Part shown: piece by piece, positions 26,257 to 36,413 of the stretch | How the letters are laid out: every line of letters begins with the position of its first letter | Numbering within the stretch: the stretch's first letter is position 1 | NCBI GenBank assembly: GCA_963835065.1 | Contig: CAWIEK010000049.1 | Coordinates: 288,001-352,000, forward strand | Length of the DNA: 64,000 bases | Direction: 5' to 3' | DNA from: an uncultured Chthonomonadaceae bacterium | GTDB taxonomy: Bacteria > Armatimonadota > Chthonomonadetes > Chthonomonadales > Chthonomonadaceae | Position numbers and translations under genes: made by a program | The notes under the pieces: generated by a model | What the model saw: only the letters and a program-made list of their open reading frames with translations | Databases searched by the model: none | Told to the model about the DNA's origin: nothing

Positions 26257-26329
26257 ATAGATTGTTCGGAGTAGAGAATTCGGGATGATTCAGAAGGAGA
26301 TTCGAGGCTTCAAGCCGAATTCAAGACGC

Positions 26330-27163
26330 ATGTGGAAATATGCCATTTGCAATGAAACCTTCGGCAATTTGGGATGGGCGGAAACCTGTCACCAGATTGC
26401 CCAACTGGGCTATGAAGGCGTGGAAATCGCGCCATTCACGCTTGCGGAGGATGCGCGCGGCATTTCCTCTCATGCGCGCCATGTTTACGCCCAAACAGCG
26501 CAGCGCGCCGGATTAGAAATTGTCGGGCTGCACTGGCTGCTCGTTTCGCCGCCCGGACTTTCCCTGACGGCTCCCGACGAAATCCTGCGCGCCCGTACCG
26601 CCGCTTATCTGGCCGATCTCGCAGACTTTTGCGCGGATGTGGGAGGACGTGTCCTCGTGCTTGGTTCACCCAAACAGCGCCGTATTCCGTCCGGGGAAAC
26701 GGCGGCGCTCGCCCGCGAACGGCTGCAATCCGCTCTGGAACCCGCCCTGTCGCGCGCTGCCGTTCATAATCTCACGCTCTGCCTTGAGCCCCTGCCCCCG
26801 CCCGAAGCCGACCTTATTCTCACACTTCAGGAAGCGCAGAATGTGATGACGCGCCTACAGCATCCGAACTTAAAAACCATTCTGGACATAAAAAGCGCTT
26901 CCAGCGAGACGGCTTCCATACCGGAACTGATCCGCCTGCACCATACCTCCATTGCGCATGTCCATGCCAATGATGCCAACCGGCGCGGACCGGGCTTCGG
27001 CGAAACAGATTATGTTCCGATTTTCAATGCTCTCAAAGAAATGCAATATACCGGCTTCGTATCCGTAGAAGTATTTGATTATACGCCCGATGCCATCACC
27101 ATCGCCCGCGACAGCCTCGCCTATATGCGTCGTTGCCAACAGCAAACACTTACGGGTCTGTAA
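26330..27163 (+). CDS. Sugar phosphate isomerase/epimerase (xylose isomerase-like TIM barrel)
   Basis: GYEGVEIAP, GSPKQR, LEPL, HVHAND, VSVEVF. Confidence 0.9.
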   Translation: MWKYAICNETFGNLGWAETCHQIAQLGYEGVEIAPFTLAEDARGISSHARHVYAQTAQRAGLEIVGLHWLLVSPPGLSLTAPDEILRARTAAYLADLADFCADVGGRVLVLGSPKQRRIPSGETAALARERLQSALEPALSRAAVHNLTLCLEPLPPPEADLILTLQEAQNVMTRLQHPNLKTILDIKSASSETASIPELIRLHHTSIAHVHANDANRRGPGFGETDYVPIFNALKEMQYTGFVSVEVFDYTPDAITIARDSLAYMRRCQQQTLTGL

Positions 27164-27226
27164 TCTCAATGCCCGAACACCCGAATACCTGAACACCCGC
27201 AGACTGTGACATGAAGGAGAAAAAAC

Positions 27227-27505
27227 TTGAAAGCGCACGTTAAAGTAAACATGCAGAACGTCAACGTAGATGAGACATTCGAAGGCGCGACGGCAGACGA
27301 AATCGTCGGCAAGATGAAATCGCGCATTGCCAAGGAAGTGCCGTTTTTCATGCGTCCCGTCGTCAACGGCTTCAGCAATCTTGGATTCGCGCAGGAAGTC
27401 GTGAAGCGCTACAACGGCAACTCCAAGCAAAACCTGCCCATTCCCAATTCCTGCGACGAGTTTCTCACCCTCGCGCAGGCGCAAGGGTTTGCTACGTTAT
27501 CCTGA
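27227..27505 (+). CDS. Small hypothetical protein
   Basis: AAGGAG RBS before a TTG start; 92-aa protein-like composition. Confidence 0.7.
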   Translation: MKAHVKVNMQNVNVDETFEGATADEIVGKMKSRIAKEVPFFMRPVVNGFSNLGFAQEVVKRYNGNSKQNLPIPNSCDEFLTLAQAQGFATLS

Positions 27506-27531
27506 ACAAGCCCCTGCTTCCTGAACTGCCG

Positions 27532-29001
27532 TCACCCTGTTTTGGAAATGGCGCGGTTTGCTTTTTCCAGAGCCGTACTTAAAAATGTAAGCGCCTGCTG
27601 CAAAGCCGAAGAAGCAGGCTGCTTGCTTTGCGCGTCCCGCACATCTTTCATTCCCGCCTCAATATCGGTGGGAGTGGAGACGGCGACCGCCTGGCGGTAC
27701 TCTTTCAGCGCCTCGCTCCAATTGTTCTGAGTCGCATACGTCAGGCCGAGGTTCAGCCGCACATAAGCCAGCGACGCATCCAGTTCCAGCGCCTTGCGGC
27801 TGTTTTGTATGGCGGCGGCGTACTGGCCCGCCTCATACTGCGACCAGCCCAGATTGCCCCAAATCGTGGCATTGTCCGGCGTAAATTTCAGCGCGGCCTG
27901 ATACGCTTTGATCGCGTCATCCCGGCGCTGCGGCGTATCCAATATCTGCGCCAGCGTTGTTTGCACGCTTGCCTGCTGCGTCGGAATGAGCGCGATTTGC
28001 GCCTGCAATAGCGCCGTTGATCGCGCATCATTGCCTGGCGCGGCAAGTTTCGCGCGCAATTGCGTAGCCGCGATTTCCAATTCGCCGTTCATTTTGCCAA
28101 GCAGGTCTTCCGCTTCGCGCAGTTTCCCCGCGCCGGCCAGCGAAGTGGCGCGTCCAAGTTTGGCCGGCAGATAGTTCCCATTGCTGCGCAGCGCGGCCTC
28201 GTATTCTTCCAGCGCCTCCCGATGCCGGCCTTCCTGTTCGTAGGCGTCTCCCATGCTTGCGTGAGCGGAGGGGCTGTCTGGAGCGCTTCCCAATGCCTGC
28301 AAAAACGCGCCCCGCGCCCGCCGCGTTTCCTTCTGCTGCAAATACACCCCGCCCTGCTGGATATACAGTTCGGGAGAATCGGGTTTCAACTCAATGGCGC
28401 GATCCAACGCGTGCAGCGCCGCCTCGTCCTGATTGGCCTGCAAAAGCGCGTTGGCAAGGAACACATACGACTGCGCGTTTGTCGGCGTCAGGTTCGCCAG
28501 GGTTTGAAACGCCCGCGCTTCTTCGGGGTACTGCTTTTTGGCTTCATACGCGATCCCAAGCCCGTACCATGCCCCTGGACTGGCAGACTTCAACGCGACC
28601 GCTTCCTTAAACGCGGCAATGGCCTCATCGAACTTGCGCGCGGACAGCGCTTCCTGCCCCTTCTTTTCCCATGCTTCCGCCGTCATTTTCGGACCTGCGG
28701 GCACAGCCAACGGCCCAACGCCACCGGGTCGGGTTGCCCCGAACGGTTCCACGCCCGGTTTAAGCGGCATCGTAGGCGCGTCCGTTTTCGACGGCTTCTG
28801 TCCCGGCGACGATTTCCCTGTCGGCACAATTTTAGGGTCTGTCTTACCCGGTTCCGTCTTCGGCTTGGCGGGAGGAGGCTGCTGCGCCTGCGCCCCACAT
28901 AGCGCAGGCAAGCATCCGCCACTCAGCATTACGAGCAGCAAGGCATAACAAGGCGAAAACTGTTTGTCACGATGAATACGTTTGTCACGGTTAAAAAGCA
29001 T
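27532..29001 (-). CDS. Secreted tetratricopeptide repeat protein
   Basis: Signal peptide, Pro/Lys linker and multiple TPR motifs (AWYGLG.AY, WGNLGW, NLGLTY). Confidence 0.88.
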   Translation of the reverse strand: MLFNRDKRIHRDKQFSPCYALLLVMLSGGCLPALCGAQAQQPPPAKPKTEPGKTDPKIVPTGKSSPGQKPSKTDAPTMPLKPGVEPFGATRPGGVGPLAVPAGPKMTAEAWEKKGQEALSARKFDEAIAAFKEAVALKSASPGAWYGLGIAYEAKKQYPEEARAFQTLANLTPTNAQSYVFLANALLQANQDEAALHALDRAIELKPDSPELYIQQGGVYLQQKETRRARGAFLQALGSAPDSPSAHASMGDAYEQEGRHREALEEYEAALRSNGNYLPAKLGRATSLAGAGKLREAEDLLGKMNGELEIAATQLRAKLAAPGNDARSTALLQAQIALIPTQQASVQTTLAQILDTPQRRDDAIKAYQAALKFTPDNATIWGNLGWSQYEAGQYAAAIQNSRKALELDASLAYVRLNLGLTYATQNNWSEALKEYRQAVAVSTPTDIEAGMKDVRDAQSKQPASSALQQALTFLSTALEKANRAISKTG

Positions 29002-29152
29002 GTGATTACCCTGATGCTGAAATGTGCCTGCGCCTGTATGATCCTAAATTAACGGCGCGGGAAAACGACGAAATTCCTACAGGAAAGCAGCCTGTCATTG
29101 TCGAATTGTTGTCACAACTACTCAGCCAACATAACTCCGTACAGGAACCATT

Positions 29153-30262
29153 ATGATACCCGAAACCAGCCGCGCCGCGATTCTCCCCGCGCCCGGCGCA
29201 GAACCCATTGTGCGCCGCTACCCCGTTCCCCCAATGGAACCGGGAGCCATTCTGCTAAAAACATTGGCTTCCGAAGTGTGCGGAACCGACGTGCATTTAT
29301 GGCATGGACGCTTGGCCGGCGTTCCCTACCCTCTTATCCCCGGCCACGTCAGTATCGGCATTGTCGAAACCATTATGGGCGAAGCGCTTGACGTCAACGA
29401 AACGCCCATTCGGGCCGGTGACGTGGTAACGTTTTTGGACGTGCATGGCACCTGCAATCGCTGCTGGTACTGCCTTGTCGCCAAAGCCACTACCCGCTGC
29501 CCCCACCGCCGCGTGTACGGTATCACGATGGGAGCCAATGACTTGCCCGGATTGGCAGGCGGCTGGAGCGAACGCATTTATTTACGTCCCGGAACCAAAA
29601 TCGCGCGCCTTGCCCCCGGCGTTTCGCCCGATGCGTGGATAGGCGGCGGCTGCGGCCTGCCCACCGCCGTTCACGCCATCGAACTCGCTAAAATTCGCCT
29701 GGGAGATCGCGTACTCATTCAAGGCAGCGGTCCGGTCGGTCTCAGCGCCTGCGCCCTCGCGCTGCTCAGTGGCGCAAGTTGGGTCGGCGTAATCGGCGCT
29801 CCCGCCGCCCGTTTGGAAGCCGCCCGTAAAATTGGCGCGGACTGGACGTGCGACATTGAACATGCAAACCGTGACGAACGCCTGCGCCTTGTTCGAGATG
29901 CCACGAGCGGACGCGGCCCCGACATCGTTATCGAAGCCAGCGGCAATCCTCACGCCGTACCCGAAGGCTGCGAACTCGTCCGCGATGCGGGCCGCTACAT
30001 CATTGTCGGCCAGTACACCAACAACGGCGACGTTCCTCTCAACCCACACCTGCACATCAACAAAAAACATCTGGACATACAGGGCTGTTGGGGTTCCGAC
30101 TTTTCCCATGTCTACAACGCAATGGAAATCATGGCCCGCTTCGACGCCCGCATTGGCTGGGCCAATTTAATCTCACATCGTTATACGCTGGAACAGGTTG
30201 GCACTGCCCTGCGCGACGTAGAACAGGGCCGCGTCATCAAAGCCGTCGTCGTGCCGGATTAA
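29153..30262 (+). CDS. Zinc-binding alcohol dehydrogenase (MDR)
   Basis: VCGTDVH, PGH, structural-zinc CNRCWYC...C, GSGPVG. Confidence 0.92.
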   Translation: MIPETSRAAILPAPGAEPIVRRYPVPPMEPGAILLKTLASEVCGTDVHLWHGRLAGVPYPLIPGHVSIGIVETIMGEALDVNETPIRAGDVVTFLDVHGTCNRCWYCLVAKATTRCPHRRVYGITMGANDLPGLAGGWSERIYLRPGTKIARLAPGVSPDAWIGGGCGLPTAVHAIELAKIRLGDRVLIQGSGPVGLSACALALLSGASWVGVIGAPAARLEAARKIGADWTCDIEHANRDERLRLVRDATSGRGPDIVIEASGNPHAVPEGCELVRDAGRYIIVGQYTNNGDVPLNPHLHINKKHLDIQGCWGSDFSHVYNAMEIMARFDARIGWANLISHRYTLEQVGTALRDVEQGRVIKAVVVPD

Positions 30263-31077: not shown

Positions 31078-31250
31078 TGACAAACTCTTCCACTGCGCAA
31101 TAATTTTCTACAAAAAATAAATTCCTGCCGGTAGCCTGCTTCTGAGTTGTCCGTCTTGAACACGTGAACCGCAAGCCCGGCCTTTGCGTCAGCCTCTTGT
31201 TTCTGTATTTTTATTTTTGTATTTTGGCTCCTTTTCAGGAGGTTCGTTCA

Positions 31251-32273
31251 TTGAGTGACAACCTGCAACGCAAATTTGTGGGCGGCGAGGCGCTGTCACA
31301 ATCGCTGGAACGCCTTGTCGAAAGCGTGTCTCCCGCCCTGCGCCGTCGCTTACAGCAAAAAGGTGTCGCGGAAGAAGAACTGGAAGACTTGCACATCGAA
31401 GCCCAGGTACGCCTGTTTGCAGCGCTGAAACGGCGGAGCCGACAGGATGAAAGCAGCCAGATCAACATTGAGGACCCAACGCGCTACGCCCATGCCGTCG
31501 CGGACACTGTTTTTGACGATTATCTGCGCCGAATGTATCCCAACCGCTGTCGGTTAAAGCGCCGCGTCCTCTATCTGCTGGACAATACGCAAACCGAAAA
31601 AAAAGTATTCGCGCGCTGGAAACATCGTACCGCCTGGATCGCCGGGTTTACCCGATGGCAGCAGCACGCTTTCCGGCCAAGCGCCCGCTACCATGCCTTT
31701 TGTAATCGCCCGGATGTGTTTTGCCAACAGGAATTAGACGATCAGGAGCCTGAAAAAATGCCCCTCCACATCCTTATGGCACATCTGTTCCGATGGCTCG
31801 GCACGCCCGTCGAATTGGAAGAACTCATTTCGCATCTTATCAAACTGCAAAAGATTACGGAAACGCGCGCCCTGCCCATTGAAGATATGGTAGAAAAAAC
31901 CGGCATGGACATGGACCATTGGCTTCCGCCCTCGCCCGAAGACGTGTCCGCCCGCGTCCTAGATTCTATAGAAGGGGAAACCTTTCGCGCCCATTTGTGG
32001 CAGTTACTTTGCAGCCTTCCTGTTCGGCAGCGTCACGCGCTCCTGCTCGGCATGAGTTCGGATGAACTGCTGCTTACGGGTACGATGAGCGACATTGCGG
32101 ACTTGCTTGAACTGCCGCTTGCCGCGCTGTCTGACTGCTGGCCCGACTTGCCCTTTTCCGACACGCAGCTCGCGCAGCGCCTGGAACTCACGCCCAAGCA
32201 AGTTTCCAATCTGCGCAAATGCGCCCGCCAAAAAATCGCGCGAAACCTGAAATGCGGAACCGAACAACCATGA
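31251..32273 (+). CDS. Extended ECF-like sigma-70 family factor
   Basis: AGGAGG RBS and TTG start; region 2-like EDLHIEAQVRL...YAHAVADTVFDDYLRR; region 4-like LPVRQRHALLL...DTQLAQRLELTPKQVSNLRKCAR; long central insert. Confidence 0.75.
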   Translation: MSDNLQRKFVGGEALSQSLERLVESVSPALRRRLQQKGVAEEELEDLHIEAQVRLFAALKRRSRQDESSQINIEDPTRYAHAVADTVFDDYLRRMYPNRCRLKRRVLYLLDNTQTEKKVFARWKHRTAWIAGFTRWQQHAFRPSARYHAFCNRPDVFCQQELDDQEPEKMPLHILMAHLFRWLGTPVELEELISHLIKLQKITETRALPIEDMVEKTGMDMDHWLPPSPEDVSARVLDSIEGETFRAHLWQLLCSLPVRQRHALLLGMSSDELLLTGTMSDIADLLELPLAALSDCWPDLPFSDTQLAQRLELTPKQVSNLRKCARQKIARNLKCGTEQP

Positions 32274-33958
32274 ATGCCTGCCCCACGCCGGAAACAATTG
32301 CCCGCTACCGCAGCGGAACCCTCAACGACACAGAGGAGATACGCGCTTTTGACGAGCATCTGCGCGATTGCCCCACCTGCCGTAAATCATTGCGGCAGCA
32401 AACCGCTTACGCCGCCATTCACCTTGCCGACAGCATCACGCCACAGCCCGATGAACCCCTGCATCCCGCAGACGCGCAAATGCTTGCTTATGTGCGCGGC
32501 CAATCGGACGACGTAGAACGTGAAATCATCGCTGCTCACTTATCTTTATGCCGCCAATGCCGGGCCGATGTTGCGGAACTTACCGCTTTCCACGAGAAAA
32601 TGCGTGTTTCCGGCTACGGCCATGTAGAGGAACGGCTCACCCAACCCACCCTGCGCGAACGCTGCGGAACCGCCTTCCATGCCGCTTTCCACGTCCTCAG
32701 CGTACGCAGCCTGCAATCCGCATTTAGTTGGTGGAACCGCTTAACTCTGGGCTTCCGGTTGGCGCTTGGGCTTGTTCTCGGCGTCCTGACAGGCATCTTC
32801 CTGCATGGGCACACAGGCAGCCTGAACGGTGTTGAAAGCGTTTTTCTCTGGCTGTTACAAAATCTTGCCACGCCCTTCATTTTTGTCGCTCTCGTCCGTA
32901 CTCTCATGGATGCCGATGTCAACGGGCGTATGGCCCGCCGCCTTGCCTACCTTGCTTTATCGAACACGATTGTCGCCGTGTGCATCGGCCTGATCGTCGG
33001 CAGGGTCGCGTACCTGCGGCCTGACGAGCATTTATCAAAGCCGGGTTACGATCCCCTACTGAACAACCTGTCTGACCAGGCGCAGCGTGGACTGCTCCAG
33101 CCACTTCTTGACAACGGCATCCTTGTCGGCGTTCTGTTTGCTATCGTCATCGGATTAGCCTTGCGCATGGTACGGCAAGACGCCATAAAAGCGCAGCAGA
33201 AAGATTATCTGGTCATCAGTCTCCTGCTTGCCTCAGTCTATCGCAGCCTGACCATTATATTGGATTGGGTTATTTCTCTTGTTCCCATCGCCGTATTCGC
33301 CGTAGTTGCCCACAAGGTAGGCGAAAGAACCTGGACGGACATCCAAATCCTGGTTAAGTTCAGCGCCTACGTGGTACTTGCGCTGTGTCTGCAAACTTTG
33401 TTCTATCTGCTTCGCCTGTGGTTCCGGGCCGCCATGCCTCCGAAGCAATTTATACGCGGAGCCTGGAAAGCCGTGCTGACGGCGTTTTCCACGGCAAGTT
33501 CCGCCGCCACCTTGCCCATCACCTACACCAGCGCCCTTGAAGGCGTAGGGGTTCGGGAGCGTTCCGCCGGATTAGGCGTACTCGTCGGCACACAGCTCAA
33601 CCGAGACGGTACAGCCCTGTACGAAGCCATCACGCCCGTTTTCATTGCCCGTGCGATTGGCCTTCCTCTTGATCCGATGCAGCAGTTGACCGTATTGGGC
33701 ATGGCGATTATAGCCTCCATTGCCGCGCCCGGCGTTCCCCAGGCCGGCCTGATTACCATGATGATTGTGTTTAAGGCTATCCATCTGGATCCCGTGTACA
33801 TTGTCTGGCTGCTGCCTCTCGATTGGCTGTTGGATCGCTTCCGCACCGCCGTCAACGTCTTAGGGGCCATGACCATGACCTGCCTGCTGGACCGGCGCAA
33901 TATCCCGTATGACAGCGAGGAACATGAGGACACCTTAGAGCCTGAAATCCTCAACTGA
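32270..33958 (+). CDS. Tandem zf-HC2 (ZAS) anti-sigma domains fused to a dicarboxylate/amino acid:cation symporter (DAACS) domain
   Basis: ATGA overlap with the sigma gene; HLRDCPTC and HLSLCRQC; AFSTASSAATLP, NRDGT, GVPQAG, DWLLDRFRTAVNV. Confidence 0.88.
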   Translation: MNACPTPETIARYRSGTLNDTEEIRAFDEHLRDCPTCRKSLRQQTAYAAIHLADSITPQPDEPLHPADAQMLAYVRGQSDDVEREIIAAHLSLCRQCRADVAELTAFHEKMRVSGYGHVEERLTQPTLRERCGTAFHAAFHVLSVRSLQSAFSWWNRLTLGFRLALGLVLGVLTGIFLHGHTGSLNGVESVFLWLLQNLATPFIFVALVRTLMDADVNGRMARRLAYLALSNTIVAVCIGLIVGRVAYLRPDEHLSKPGYDPLLNNLSDQAQRGLLQPLLDNGILVGVLFAIVIGLALRMVRQDAIKAQQKDYLVISLLLASVYRSLTIILDWVISLVPIAVFAVVAHKVGERTWTDIQILVKFSAYVVLALCLQTLFYLLRLWFRAAMPPKQFIRGAWKAVLTAFSTASSAATLPITYTSALEGVGVRERSAGLGVLVGTQLNRDGTALYEAITPVFIARAIGLPLDPMQQLTVLGMAIIASIAAPGVPQAGLITMMIVFKAIHLDPVYIVWLLPLDWLLDRFRTAVNVLGAMTMTCLLDRRNIPYDSEEHEDTLEPEILN

Positions 33959-34058: not shown

Positions 34059-35507
34059 ATGGCGCACACTCCGCACGGCATACTGCCCCTCGAACCCGCA
34101 AACGGTTTTTGGGCGGCCTACAACCGAATTCCCCTCTTTGTCCGCATCCTCGTTGCCATGACGCTAGGCATTATCGCGGGCGAATTGATACCGCCCGCCA
34201 CCATGACGCAGTATGCTCCCTCCTTAAAACTGGTCAGCGACACGATCCTGCAACTGCTGAAACTGCTCGCCACGCCGCTCATCTTTATCGCCGTCGTCCA
34301 CGCCATTTATAAAGCGCAGGCCAGTGGCAAAACCGCAAGCCGTCTTGTGTTCCTGTTGATGCGCAATACAGTTGTCGCCATTTTCATCGGCCTGCTTGTC
34401 GCCAACGTTTTACAGCCGGGAAGGTGGGTACATGCCGCGCCGTCCGGCGACAAAATAGCGACGAAATCTTCCAATTTTCTGCTTGATTTGGTCGGTAAAA
34501 TCCCGGCCAATCTCGTAGACCCGCTTCAGCATAATGAGATTATCTCTATTCTCATCTTAGCGGTCGCGTTCGGCGTCGCCATGCGCCTTGTGCGCGATCA
34601 GCAAGCCCGCGACGGCAAATCCGGCATCAACACCATCGGCGATTTGCTGGATACCGCCTTCAGCATCGTCATGGTCATGTTGCACTGGATTTTCGCCATC
34701 GTGCCTCTTGCTGTCTTCACGGTTGTTACCCGGCAGGTGGGAACCAACGGCGTCAAGCCGCTCATCGGCCTACTGGGGTTTGTCATCGCGGTGGTACTGG
34801 CGCTTGCGTTGCAGGCCGGATGGTATCTCGCAAACGTCCGTTTCCAGTCATGGGTAACGCCCGGACGGTTCCTCCGCGGAGCCTCAGATGCCCTCGTGAT
34901 GGCGTTTTCAACCGCCAGTTCCGCCGCAACCCTACCCGTTACCTATGCGGCTATGAAAGATAAAATCGGGGTACGGGAGGAATCCGCCGGTTTGGGAGTG
35001 ATGGTTGGTGGCACATTCAATCACGACGGCACGGCGCTCTACGAGGCAATGGCCGCCCTGTTCGTCTGTCAGATGCTCGGACAGCATCTAAATTGGGGAG
35101 AACAAATCAAAGTAGTCATCATGTCCGTGTTCGCGTCGGTCGGCGCGGCGGGCATCCCGGAAGCGGGCTTGGTCACGATGCTGGCCGTTTTCTCCGCCGT
35201 CAACCTTCCCACCGAGTACATCGCCCTGTTGCTGCCTCTCGACTGGTTCCTCGACCGCTGCCGCACCGCCATCAACGTCATGGGCGATATGAGCGTCACC
35301 TGCATGATTGACGGCAAAATCGCCCCTCCGAGTGAGGCGACAGCCGGACTCATCTTGCAACACCGGAGATTCACGCCGAAATACTGTCACAGCATTGAAG
35401 CGCATCATCTACTCTTAGTCAATGCGTATGCCGCTGCTCCTCAGGGCTGCTTTGAAACTGAACGATCATACAACCCAATTTGCGCCTGCATGTCGTTGTA
35501 CAATTGA
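34059..35507 (+). CDS. Dicarboxylate/amino acid:cation symporter (DAACS, GltP/GltT-like)
   Basis: AAGGAG RBS; AFSTASSAATLP, NHDGT, GIPEAG, DWFLDRCRTAINVMGD. The C-terminal tail runs into the convergent gene, so the 3' end is uncertain. Confidence 0.92.
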   Translation: MAHTPHGILPLEPANGFWAAYNRIPLFVRILVAMTLGIIAGELIPPATMTQYAPSLKLVSDTILQLLKLLATPLIFIAVVHAIYKAQASGKTASRLVFLLMRNTVVAIFIGLLVANVLQPGRWVHAAPSGDKIATKSSNFLLDLVGKIPANLVDPLQHNEIISILILAVAFGVAMRLVRDQQARDGKSGINTIGDLLDTAFSIVMVMLHWIFAIVPLAVFTVVTRQVGTNGVKPLIGLLGFVIAVVLALALQAGWYLANVRFQSWVTPGRFLRGASDALVMAFSTASSAATLPVTYAAMKDKIGVREESAGLGVMVGGTFNHDGTALYEAMAALFVCQMLGQHLNWGEQIKVVIMSVFASVGAAGIPEAGLVTMLAVFSAVNLPTEYIALLLPLDWFLDRCRTAINVMGDMSVTCMIDGKIAPPSEATAGLILQHRRFTPKYCHSIEAHHLLLVNAYAAAPQGCFETERSYNPICACMSLYN

Positions 35508-36076
35508 TCAAAGGTAACACAAAACACTTTATTAGAGTCAATTAGCACTCTATCAACTCGCCAGCGCAGTCGCTCTGCTTCACCCGGTTCCAGCAGATTG
35601 TGTCGTCCAATCAGCATCAATCCAGAGAATGTTGCATGACGCCCGAACAAGCGTTCAAATTCATTCGTCTGGCGCACATCGCTCACCTTGTAAAACCAGT
35701 CTATGATTTGACTGAAACCATGCTCAAATCGTGGTGACCAATCTCGCGTTGCCTTTTTGCCTGAGCGATCAAAGACACTTCTGGCCGAAGCGTCTTCCAC
35801 TTCAACAAGGCAGTACGCCTTGTTACTCGAATCGCCGATTACCAGGTCACAGCTAAAGTCTCCAGACAAAGACAACTCCGAAGCAACGCAATCCACTTCT
35901 ATGATGCCCGGCACATATAAGTTCGTCAGCGCCGTCAAATGTTTGCAAGCCTTGAAAAGTGGCAGCAGATGTTTGCGTTCCTCCGGTTCTGCTACCGTAT
36001 CCAGAAGCGTCTTCAATGCCTTGACTTCTTGCTGACAAGCCGTAAGATCGAAGGAGTAATGGTCTAAACTTTTCAT
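35441..36076 (-). CDS. Shedu-type anti-phage nuclease (DUF4263, PD-(D/E)XK)
   Basis: EE.....F, EL.L.GDFSCDLVIGD, LVEVEDA, FEHGFSQIIDW, LIGR, TFDQL pattern. Confidence 0.78.
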   Translation of the reverse strand: MKSLDHYSFDLTACQQEVKALKTLLDTVAEPEERKHLLPLFKACKHLTALTNLYVPGIIEVDCVASELSLSGDFSCDLVIGDSSNKAYCLVEVEDASARSVFDRSGKKATRDWSPRFEHGFSQIIDWFYKVSDVRQTNEFERLFGRHATFSGLMLIGRHNLLEPGEAERLRWRVDRVLIDSNKVFCVTFDQLYNDMQAQIGLYDRSVSKQP

Positions 36077-36369
36077 CCGTTTCCACTTGTCTGCGCGGCA
36101 ATTGCTGTCTGAAACGCATCTATTCTGGCTTGAGGAATAATGTCTAACACTTCCAACCCTTCCGACGATTTTTCGAAGAAGACACGCAGACTGGGACCGA
36201 CTGGAATCATATAGATGCCCTCCGGCTTTATCCACACCTGCACATCCGGGATTTTCTCCCATTCTTCCTGCGCCTGATCCACCTTCTTGACAGCCTGCTC
36301 TATTTGTTTGCGTATCCCCGGCTTCAGTGTATTGATCTGGATATAAGCCCGGTTGGTAAAGCTGATCAT
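36073..36369 (-). CDS. RelE/ParE-like small protein
   Basis: GAGGAGG RBS; ISFTNRA..QI..L, IY.I.VG.SLRVFF, I/V.DI pattern; ATGA-coupled to the Shedu-like gene. Confidence 0.6.
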   Translation of the reverse strand: MISFTNRAYIQINTLKPGIRKQIEQAVKKVDQAQEEWEKIPDVQVWIKPEGIYMIPVGPSLRVFFEKSSEGLEVLDIIPQARIDAFQTAIAAQTSGNG

Positions 36370-36413
36370 AATGCCTCCTCTCGCCTCGTTACAAGCAATA
36401 CCTGACAATATAA

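Follow-up and report, generated by a model that had tools for sequence, protein, structure and literature searches.

An open reading frame in a stretch of 64,000 nucleotides from an uncultured Chthonomonadaceae bacterium (the whole stretch analyzed, referred to here as the window) joins an anti-sigma factor to a DAACS transporter domain. This raises the question of whether the transporter part still carries a solute or has become the sensing part of the anti-sigma factor. The first-pass annotation had noted that substrate-binding residues were kept while a cation-coupling Asp was lost, and had proposed that the protein binds its substrate but may not transport it, as expected for a sensor. After comparison with fused and unfused homologues, our reading is that the protein is probably an ion-uncoupled amino-acid receptor, which would keep the sigma factor encoded next to it silent until ligand binding changes its shape.

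The fusion protein (P0001, 562 aa) is encoded at 32270..33958 on the forward strand. Pfam gave a match to zf-HC2 (E 8e-7) and a match to SDF (PF00375, E 2e-75) covering positions 2-386 of the 387-position model; no STAC domain or kinase was found by this search. The AlphaFold2 model, built with a 138-row alignment, had a mean pLDDT of 86.7 and was predicted to contain the complete fold with both hairpins. It was in an inward-facing state, to which no weight was given. GltPh structures were its top matches in Foldseek (TMt about 0.8). The full-model PF00375 match and the GltPh-like fold with HP1, HP2 and a broken TM7 place P0001 in the DAACS/SLC1 fold. Its helical N-terminal domain has two HxxxCxxC motifs of the ZAS anti-sigma type, H30-x3-C34-x2-C37 (32357..32380, forward strand) and H90-x3-C94-x2-C97 (32537..32560, forward strand), the second of which was invariant in 13/13 aligned fusions. 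No strongly hydrophobic 19-residue window was seen before residue 150 when sampled every 10 residues, and the N-terminus of DAACS proteins is cytoplasmic; thus, the ZAS pair should be cytoplasmic. One fused subgroup has a conserved acidic C-terminal motif after TM8 (EPE in 10/11), a candidate contact for relaying a signal to the ZAS pair.

Directly upstream is the gene of an ECF-like sigma factor of 340 aa (31251..32273, forward strand), in which a long insertion separates regions 2 and 4; its match to TIGR02937 (E 1e-9) was below the cut-off. The gene has a TTG start 8 nt after AGGAGG, and its stop overlaps the start of the fusion gene (ATGA). Among 32 homologues of the sigma factor, some were named sigma-70 or sigma24 by their sources. 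The long insertion of the family (alignment A3, profile positions 164-209) was weakly like the N-terminal domain of RNA polymerase delta (E 0.02). A complex of the sigma factor with residues 1-135 of the fusion was predicted with a score of 0.87 in three runs, compared to 0.00 for the best of three controls, and likeness to solved sigma/ZAS pairs may contribute to this score. The mark applied to such complexes was reached by 116/157 solved pairs and 2/215 mismatched pairs. Contacts agreed by at least 96% between the runs, the partner pLDDT was at least 86, and the interface included the C-terminal residues 313-331 of the sigma factor. The cytoplasmic ZAS pair is therefore predicted to bind the adjacent sigma factor.

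The sigma gene was found directly upstream of the fusion gene at 10/10 loci with upstream DNA. An unfused DAACS paralogue followed the fusion gene directly at four of the 10 loci with downstream DNA and was missing from this place at the other six. In the window, this paralogue (P0002; 34059..35507, forward strand) is 38% identical to the fusion and has His311 and Asp405 in GltPh numbering; apart from these two proteins, the genome gave no PF00375 match. The reading frame of P0002 extends about 60 residues beyond the end of the family and overlaps a gene for a Shedu SduA C-terminal nuclease domain (35441-36262, reverse strand; PF14082, E 7e-24). This gene and a weak ParE-like ORF (36073-36408, reverse strand) sit between P0002 and metH, whereas metH directly follows the DAACS gene at locus L004. 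At the same locus, P0014 looked like a split form of the fusion but was rejected as an assembly artefact, with frameshifts in many genes of the locus, including metH. On the other side, positions 26285-30262 of the window encode a TIM-barrel sugar isomerase, a TPR protein and a zinc-binding dehydrogenase. Their synteny with the system is conserved in several genomes, and the dehydrogenase gene abuts the sigma gene in one genus. In one genome only, a DUF1611 gene and an enolase-superfamily gene, which we take to be dipeptide-epimerase-like, converge on the transporter pair (L003:9431-11694, reverse strand).

Seven of the 26 loci examined for the sigma family had a DAACS fusion. Of the remaining 19, 12 encode ZAS proteins for which either no or one TM helix was predicted, and no DAACS gene lay within 1.5 kb at any of these 19. 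Therefore, the transporter domain occupies the place of the sensing part in an existing sigma/anti-sigma module. This genome has one paralogous sigma/ZAS pair, behind a TPR-rich gene. At that locus (L105, G000:C49:477000-486000), the sigma paralogue lies between the TPR-rich gene and the gene of a tandem-ZAS, single-helix anti-sigma factor; the outer part of this factor is divided between two reading frames. A search of 401 genomes of the phylum gave 67 weaker matches beyond those listed. Among the matches listed, those containing a ZAS domain came from six genomes, all of the same soil-type family as the window, and two loci with the system are named Chthonomonadaceae (Armatimonadota). The fusion-bearing genomes belong to two genera only, and the counts given here are not independent.

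The residues on which the sensor proposal had been based were examined in the fusion and its neighbor. TM7 of the fusion contains NRDGT (N444-R-D-G-T448; 33599..33613, forward strand) and TM8 reads DWLLDRFRTAVNVLGA (D518-A533; 33821..33868, forward strand), while P0002 has NHDGT at 35019-35033 and DWFLDRCRTAINVMGD at 35241-35288, which confirms the motifs noted in the first-pass annotation. Counting along the HMMER alignment of P0001 with GltPh chains gave D522=D394, R525=R397, T526=T398, N529=N401, R445=M311 and A533=D405, in agreement with the equivalences first proposed. TM8 thus keeps D518, D522, R525, T526 and N529 and has A533 in place of the Na1 residue Asp405. The Ser-rich HP1 motif (STASSA; 33488..33505, forward strand), in which S410/S411 correspond to S277/S278, is also retained. 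In the HP2 gate (33716..33748, forward strand), G493 corresponds to G359 and P487 to A353. P487 is invariant in the fusions, but Pro at 353 was rejected as a fusion marker because it also occurs in some unfused proteins; changes at position 308 were rejected because this position also varies among unfused proteins. P0001 has all the residues of an acidic amino acid binder, namely D394, R397, T398, N401, T314, S277/S278 and G359.

The retention of the pocket extended across 23 fused homologues (16 database proteins and seven translated loci, several of them near-identical pairs), whose membrane parts were 37-99% identical (median 45%). D394, R397, T314, S277, S278, G359, D390 and D312 were present in 23/23, and T398 and N401 in 22/23. 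In total, 55 of 383 columns were invariant. Arg311 was also present in all 23 fused proteins, and Asp405 in none; the residue at 405 was Ala in one, Gly in three, Ser in two, Thr in six and His in 11. Of the Na3 residues, D312 was found in 23/23 and N310 in 19/23. Glu occupied the Q318 position in 16/23, and HP2 and Glu318 of the fusion resemble the EAAT pattern. Arg311 together with the loss of Asp405 is neither chance nor a private mutation. These counts support the view that, in the fused family, selection acts on the substrate pocket and leaves the Na1 Asp free to change. Arg311 is not universal in the fused clade, since P0140, a fragment inside it, has His311 with His405.

Unfused relatives were compared next to the fusions. 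From 385 distinct proteins, 17 fused, 16 fragmentary and four frameshifted ones were removed, as well as eight that could not be aligned at both sites. The remaining 340 full-length proteins are centered on the nearest relatives, with the DctA/GltP clades outside. Within this set, Arg311 and Ala405 were each found in 0/340 proteins, so neither is common among these unfused transporters; it is a common occurrence that would have spoken against the sensor proposal. Asp405 was present in 329, Glu405 in one and a non-acidic residue in 10. The nearest unfused relatives have His or Asn, and not Met, at 311. The first description is corrected in so far as the change from the lineage of the neighbor is thus from His to Arg.

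Lys311 was found in 12 unfused proteins, namely a cyanobacterial group of 10 (P0142, P0143, P0152, P0154, P0157, P0303-P0306 and P0308) and P0136 and P0163. The 10 had no Asp405, whereas position 405 was acidic in every one of the 328 unfused proteins with a non-basic residue at 311. In at least two lineages, a basic 311 is thus paired with the absence of Asp405, and the pattern is not exclusive to the fusions. The named sources of the Lys311 proteins are cyanobacterial. The cyanobacterial proteins keep a full-length SDF match but have lost R397 and often D394 or N401, and most Lys311 proteins without Asp405 have also lost pocket residues. They are possibly pseudo-transporters or carriers of another solute. 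Two pairs of them have a longest contig of equal length, which suggests tandem genes, and no Lys311 paralogue adjoining an ordinary DAACS gene was found in 53 loci.

A quick tree of 76 rows with a midpoint root placed seven of the Lys311 proteins in two lineages, both apart from the fusions. The fused proteins formed one clade (SH-aLRT 98), sister to the His311 subfamily that holds P0002, and fused subgroups had long stem branches and faster change. Among 16 long or fused matches, Pfam found no DAACS signalling fusion other than that with zf-HC2. Six DAACS proteins of 590-878 aa (P0204, P0213, P0214, P0219, P0221 and P0225) have long C-terminal extensions without a Pfam match, and their ion sites are canonical (Met311, Asp405). 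A large unfused subfamily (L065-L077 and many others) has the HP1 motif NSSL, the motif NNDGILLYE and the TM8 motif ARxRS, with Asp394 replaced by Ala, Gly or Ser; it likely binds a non-amino-acid substrate.

The consequence of these changes for transport was considered with the help of published work. In GltPh, the side chain of M311 projects between substrate, Na1 and Na2, coupling the three (PMC4051121). With D405N, HP2 opens and Asp binds without Na+, and D405A gave a similar result in the HP2 assay (bioRxiv 2021.11.29.470416). Two coupling signatures have been described: [S/T]92-93, N310, [M/S]311, [D/E]312 and [D/E]405 for Na+-coupled members, and a hydrophobic residue at 92, L311 and N405 for H+-coupled members of the GltP/DctA type (PMC12668577). 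P0001 follows neither of them, with N92, R311 and A405, and L311 or N405 was found in 0/23 fused proteins. The replacement of T92 by Asn is common to the subfamily of the neighbor, and P0002 likewise fits neither signature (N92, H311).

A loss of Asp405 would mean a loss of Na1 coupling and not necessarily of translocation, and an absence of transport does not follow from the missing Asp. The sensor reading itself is well supported by the architecture, the selection pattern, the predicted sigma binding and the co-occurring promoter-like motif described below. Some evidence favors a working carrier, uncoupled, exchanging or proton-coupled, whose ZAS pair would report flux as in CbrA-type transceptors. 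Proton-coupled DAACS members with D405N and M311L still transport, and uncoupled DAACS transport exists, including that of an uncoupled ancestor (PMC12668577). EAAC1 D454N keeps homoexchange and loses net transport through a defect in K+ relocation (PMC7537348, PMC2151618), a step without a sure bacterial counterpart. The SLC5 transceptor CbrA both senses and transports histidine (PMC7096432); in a transceptor, a transporter fold serves as a receptor and ligand binding changes the signalling output (PMC11109136). The full predicted fold with both hairpins and the frequent Glu at the Q318 position would also suit a carrier, and in one genome (G374, 86% complete) the fusion was the sole match at E<=1e-20. 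We nevertheless consider a working carrier rather unlikely, as the family combines neither M/S311 with D/E405 nor L311 with N405, position 405 tolerates Ala, Gly, Ser, Thr and His, and 4/10 loci keep an unfused Asp405 paralogue beside the fusion. From the residues, concentrative uptake by the fusion is unlikely, and exchange or facilitated movement may remain.

Alternatively, what the DAACS domain senses might be a membrane property, such as potential, pH, thickness or damage, and no solute, with the pocket kept for structure. The conserved motif targets are envelope genes, namely the flotillin-like, DacB (PF02113), TIGR04222 and SigW-like ECF genes, which would suit such a sensor. This explanation is improbable, however, since the cyanobacterial Lys311 proteins lose R397 and often D394 or N401 despite a full-length SDF match, whereas the fusions keep these residues in 22-23/23. 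It is very improbable that the fusion is a regulatory subunit in mixed trimers with the neighboring transporter, as in DctA-DcuS co-sensing. DAACS proteins are trimers, the two genes of the window are adjacent with products 38% identical, and the paralogue comes directly after the fusion at 4/10 loci, but the other six have no unfused gene there, and GltPh-family protomers are independent units, which makes reporting across subunits less natural. The long stem branches, faster change and variable position 405 could point to a decaying duplicate that merely anchors the anti-sigma factor in the membrane. This is hardly credible, given that the fold, the pocket and Arg311 are conserved down to 37% identity and that related anti-sigma factors need only 0-1 predicted TM helices.

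A promoter-like motif, GGTAGC-N16-CGTC, was seen at 31130..31155 on the forward strand, and from its position it is likely the autoregulatory promoter of the sigma gene. The general form GGTAGC-N16-CGTY, exact or as a GGTAGA variant, was present at the system locus in 9/10 cases. In the window and at two further loci of the same genus, it preceded the sigma gene. In the second genus, it lay upstream of a gene run of DacB (PF02113), dehydrogenase and sigma factor in 3/3 genomes scanned, and two of these had it 42-43 nt before the fusion gene as well. Three metagenome loci had the GGTAGA variant. The motif was not enriched genome-wide (22 sites vs 13-36 at other spacings), and conservation of position was therefore taken as the evidence for it. 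Inspection of the window by eye suggested a promoter common to the sigma gene and the gene of P0002, but it was not conserved at four other loci and was rejected. In G199, an unlinked unfused transporter gene had no GGTAGC-N16-CGTY upstream.

The motif was also found away from the system. Upstream of a flotillin-like gene, it occurred at a distance of up to 1450 nt in 5/6 genomes with the fusion (four exact) compared to 1/24 genomes without it. The single site among the latter had one mismatch and a distance of 1397 nt; upstream DNA was missing for one of the 24, and absence of the fusion in them rests on searches of partly incomplete genomes. This comparison covered 30 of the 38 genomes with a match, and the flotillin-like gene matched FloT below the cut-off (E 1.6e-11). 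GGTAGC-N16-CGTY also precedes the gene of a SigW-like ECF in three genomes of one genus and a DcuC gene in this genome only. A secreted-protein gene had a site in 2/4 fusion-bearing genomes whose upstream DNA was present, and a TIGR04222 gene had one in one of two. That the motif is the one read by the SigW-like ECF was rejected: this ECF occurs family-wide, and its gene has a different promoter-like motif, GAAAC-N17-CGTA, upstream in 30/30 genomes (L115-L144), with an exact GGTAGC in 2/30. Because of this, GGTAGC-N16-CGTY should belong to another sigma factor, most simply the one adjacent to the fusion; another lineage-specific ECF is possible. The predicted targets are cell-envelope genes rather than genes of amino-acid metabolism, which, like the lack of the motif at the transporter gene of G199, counts against an amino-acid receptor.

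In the receptor reading that we favor, the retention of Arg397 and Asp394 would point to an acidic amino acid, for instance Asp or Glu, as the ligand. Arg311 would act as a built-in cation, and the loss of Asp405 would mimic the Na1-bound state; together they would give the charge of the state loaded at Na1 and Na2 without ions, with a pre-formed pocket. In ApcT and CaiT, the place of Na2 is taken by basic residues, and both still transport (PMC6925253). Ligand binding by the fusion would then need little of the Na+ gradient, and its concentrative uptake would be lost or weak. Some dependence on Na+ may remain, as the Na3 residues D312 and N310 are kept. Closure of the gate or elevator movement would be relayed to the ZAS pair, by release or proteolysis, and the freed sigma factor would read GGTAGC-N16-CGTY before its own operon and envelope genes: the flotillin-like gene with a partner gene and those for DacB, the TIGR04222 protein and the SigW-like ECF.

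The fusion shares its fold, the HP1 serines, D394, R397, T398, N401, T314 and D312 with GltPh, GltTk and the EAATs, and it differs from them in Arg311, Asn92, the missing Asp405, the tandem ZAS and the coupling to a sigma gene. With class I zinc-binding anti-sigma factors (RsrA, RsiW and ChrR type; PF13490), it shares a cytoplasmic N-terminal HxxxCxxC and predicted sigma binding, and its gene likewise follows the sigma gene immediately, with an overlap. Unlike these, it has two tandem motifs and a multi-helix elevator domain in place of a single helix with an outside domain, and its sigma factor has a long insertion. The Bacillus SigW-RsiW envelope stress regulon has a ZAS anti-sigma factor and flotillin/NfeD-type genes. 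The fusion system is similar in its ZAS anti-sigma factor and in having flotillin/NfeD-type genes among its predicted targets, but its sigma family and promoter are different, and a SigW-like ECF is itself a predicted target in one genus. CbrA/CrbS kinases also have a secondary-transporter domain fused to a signalling output, but theirs is an SLC5 domain with STAC and a kinase, and CbrA has been shown to transport (PMC7096432), whereas the fusion joins SLC1 to an anti-sigma factor and has no STAC by Pfam. It would thus work like a transceptor of the CbrA kind, yet it is not an SLC5-STAC member. In DctA-DcuS, a DAACS protein likewise takes part in signal transduction; DctA, however, is active, unfused and paired with a separate kinase (PMC4280142, PMC5703999), while the fusion joins DAACS to the regulator and has altered ion sites.

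No description of a DAACS-anti-sigma fusion was found in the literature searched. The terms 'symporter', 'zf-HC2', 'ZAS' and 'Armatimonadetes' were absent from the main text of the ECF reclassification (PMC7826278), the supplements of which may list the sigma group. Bacterial receptors derived from transporters are rare, and our searches turned up no described case that links the glutamate-transporter fold to a sigma output. The locus offers a natural two-residue experiment on the Na1/Na2/M311 coupling that is central for GltPh and the human EAATs, with the unfused paralogue as a control. The sigma factor and its predicted promoter would provide a genetic reporter of the conformation that an elevator transporter adopts, and the fusion is a possible scaffold for amino-acid biosensors. 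The separate occurrence of a basic 311 without Asp405 in cyanobacterial paralogues would suggest a general route for uncoupling SLC1 proteins. It is plausible, though we hold this tentatively, that the fusion is a natural receptor of the SLC1 fold, in which a single gene fusion put a glutamate transporter in place of the sensing part of an anti-sigma factor, the ion sites were rewired and amino-acid binding, independent of the Na+ gradient, may be read out as sigma release and an envelope response.
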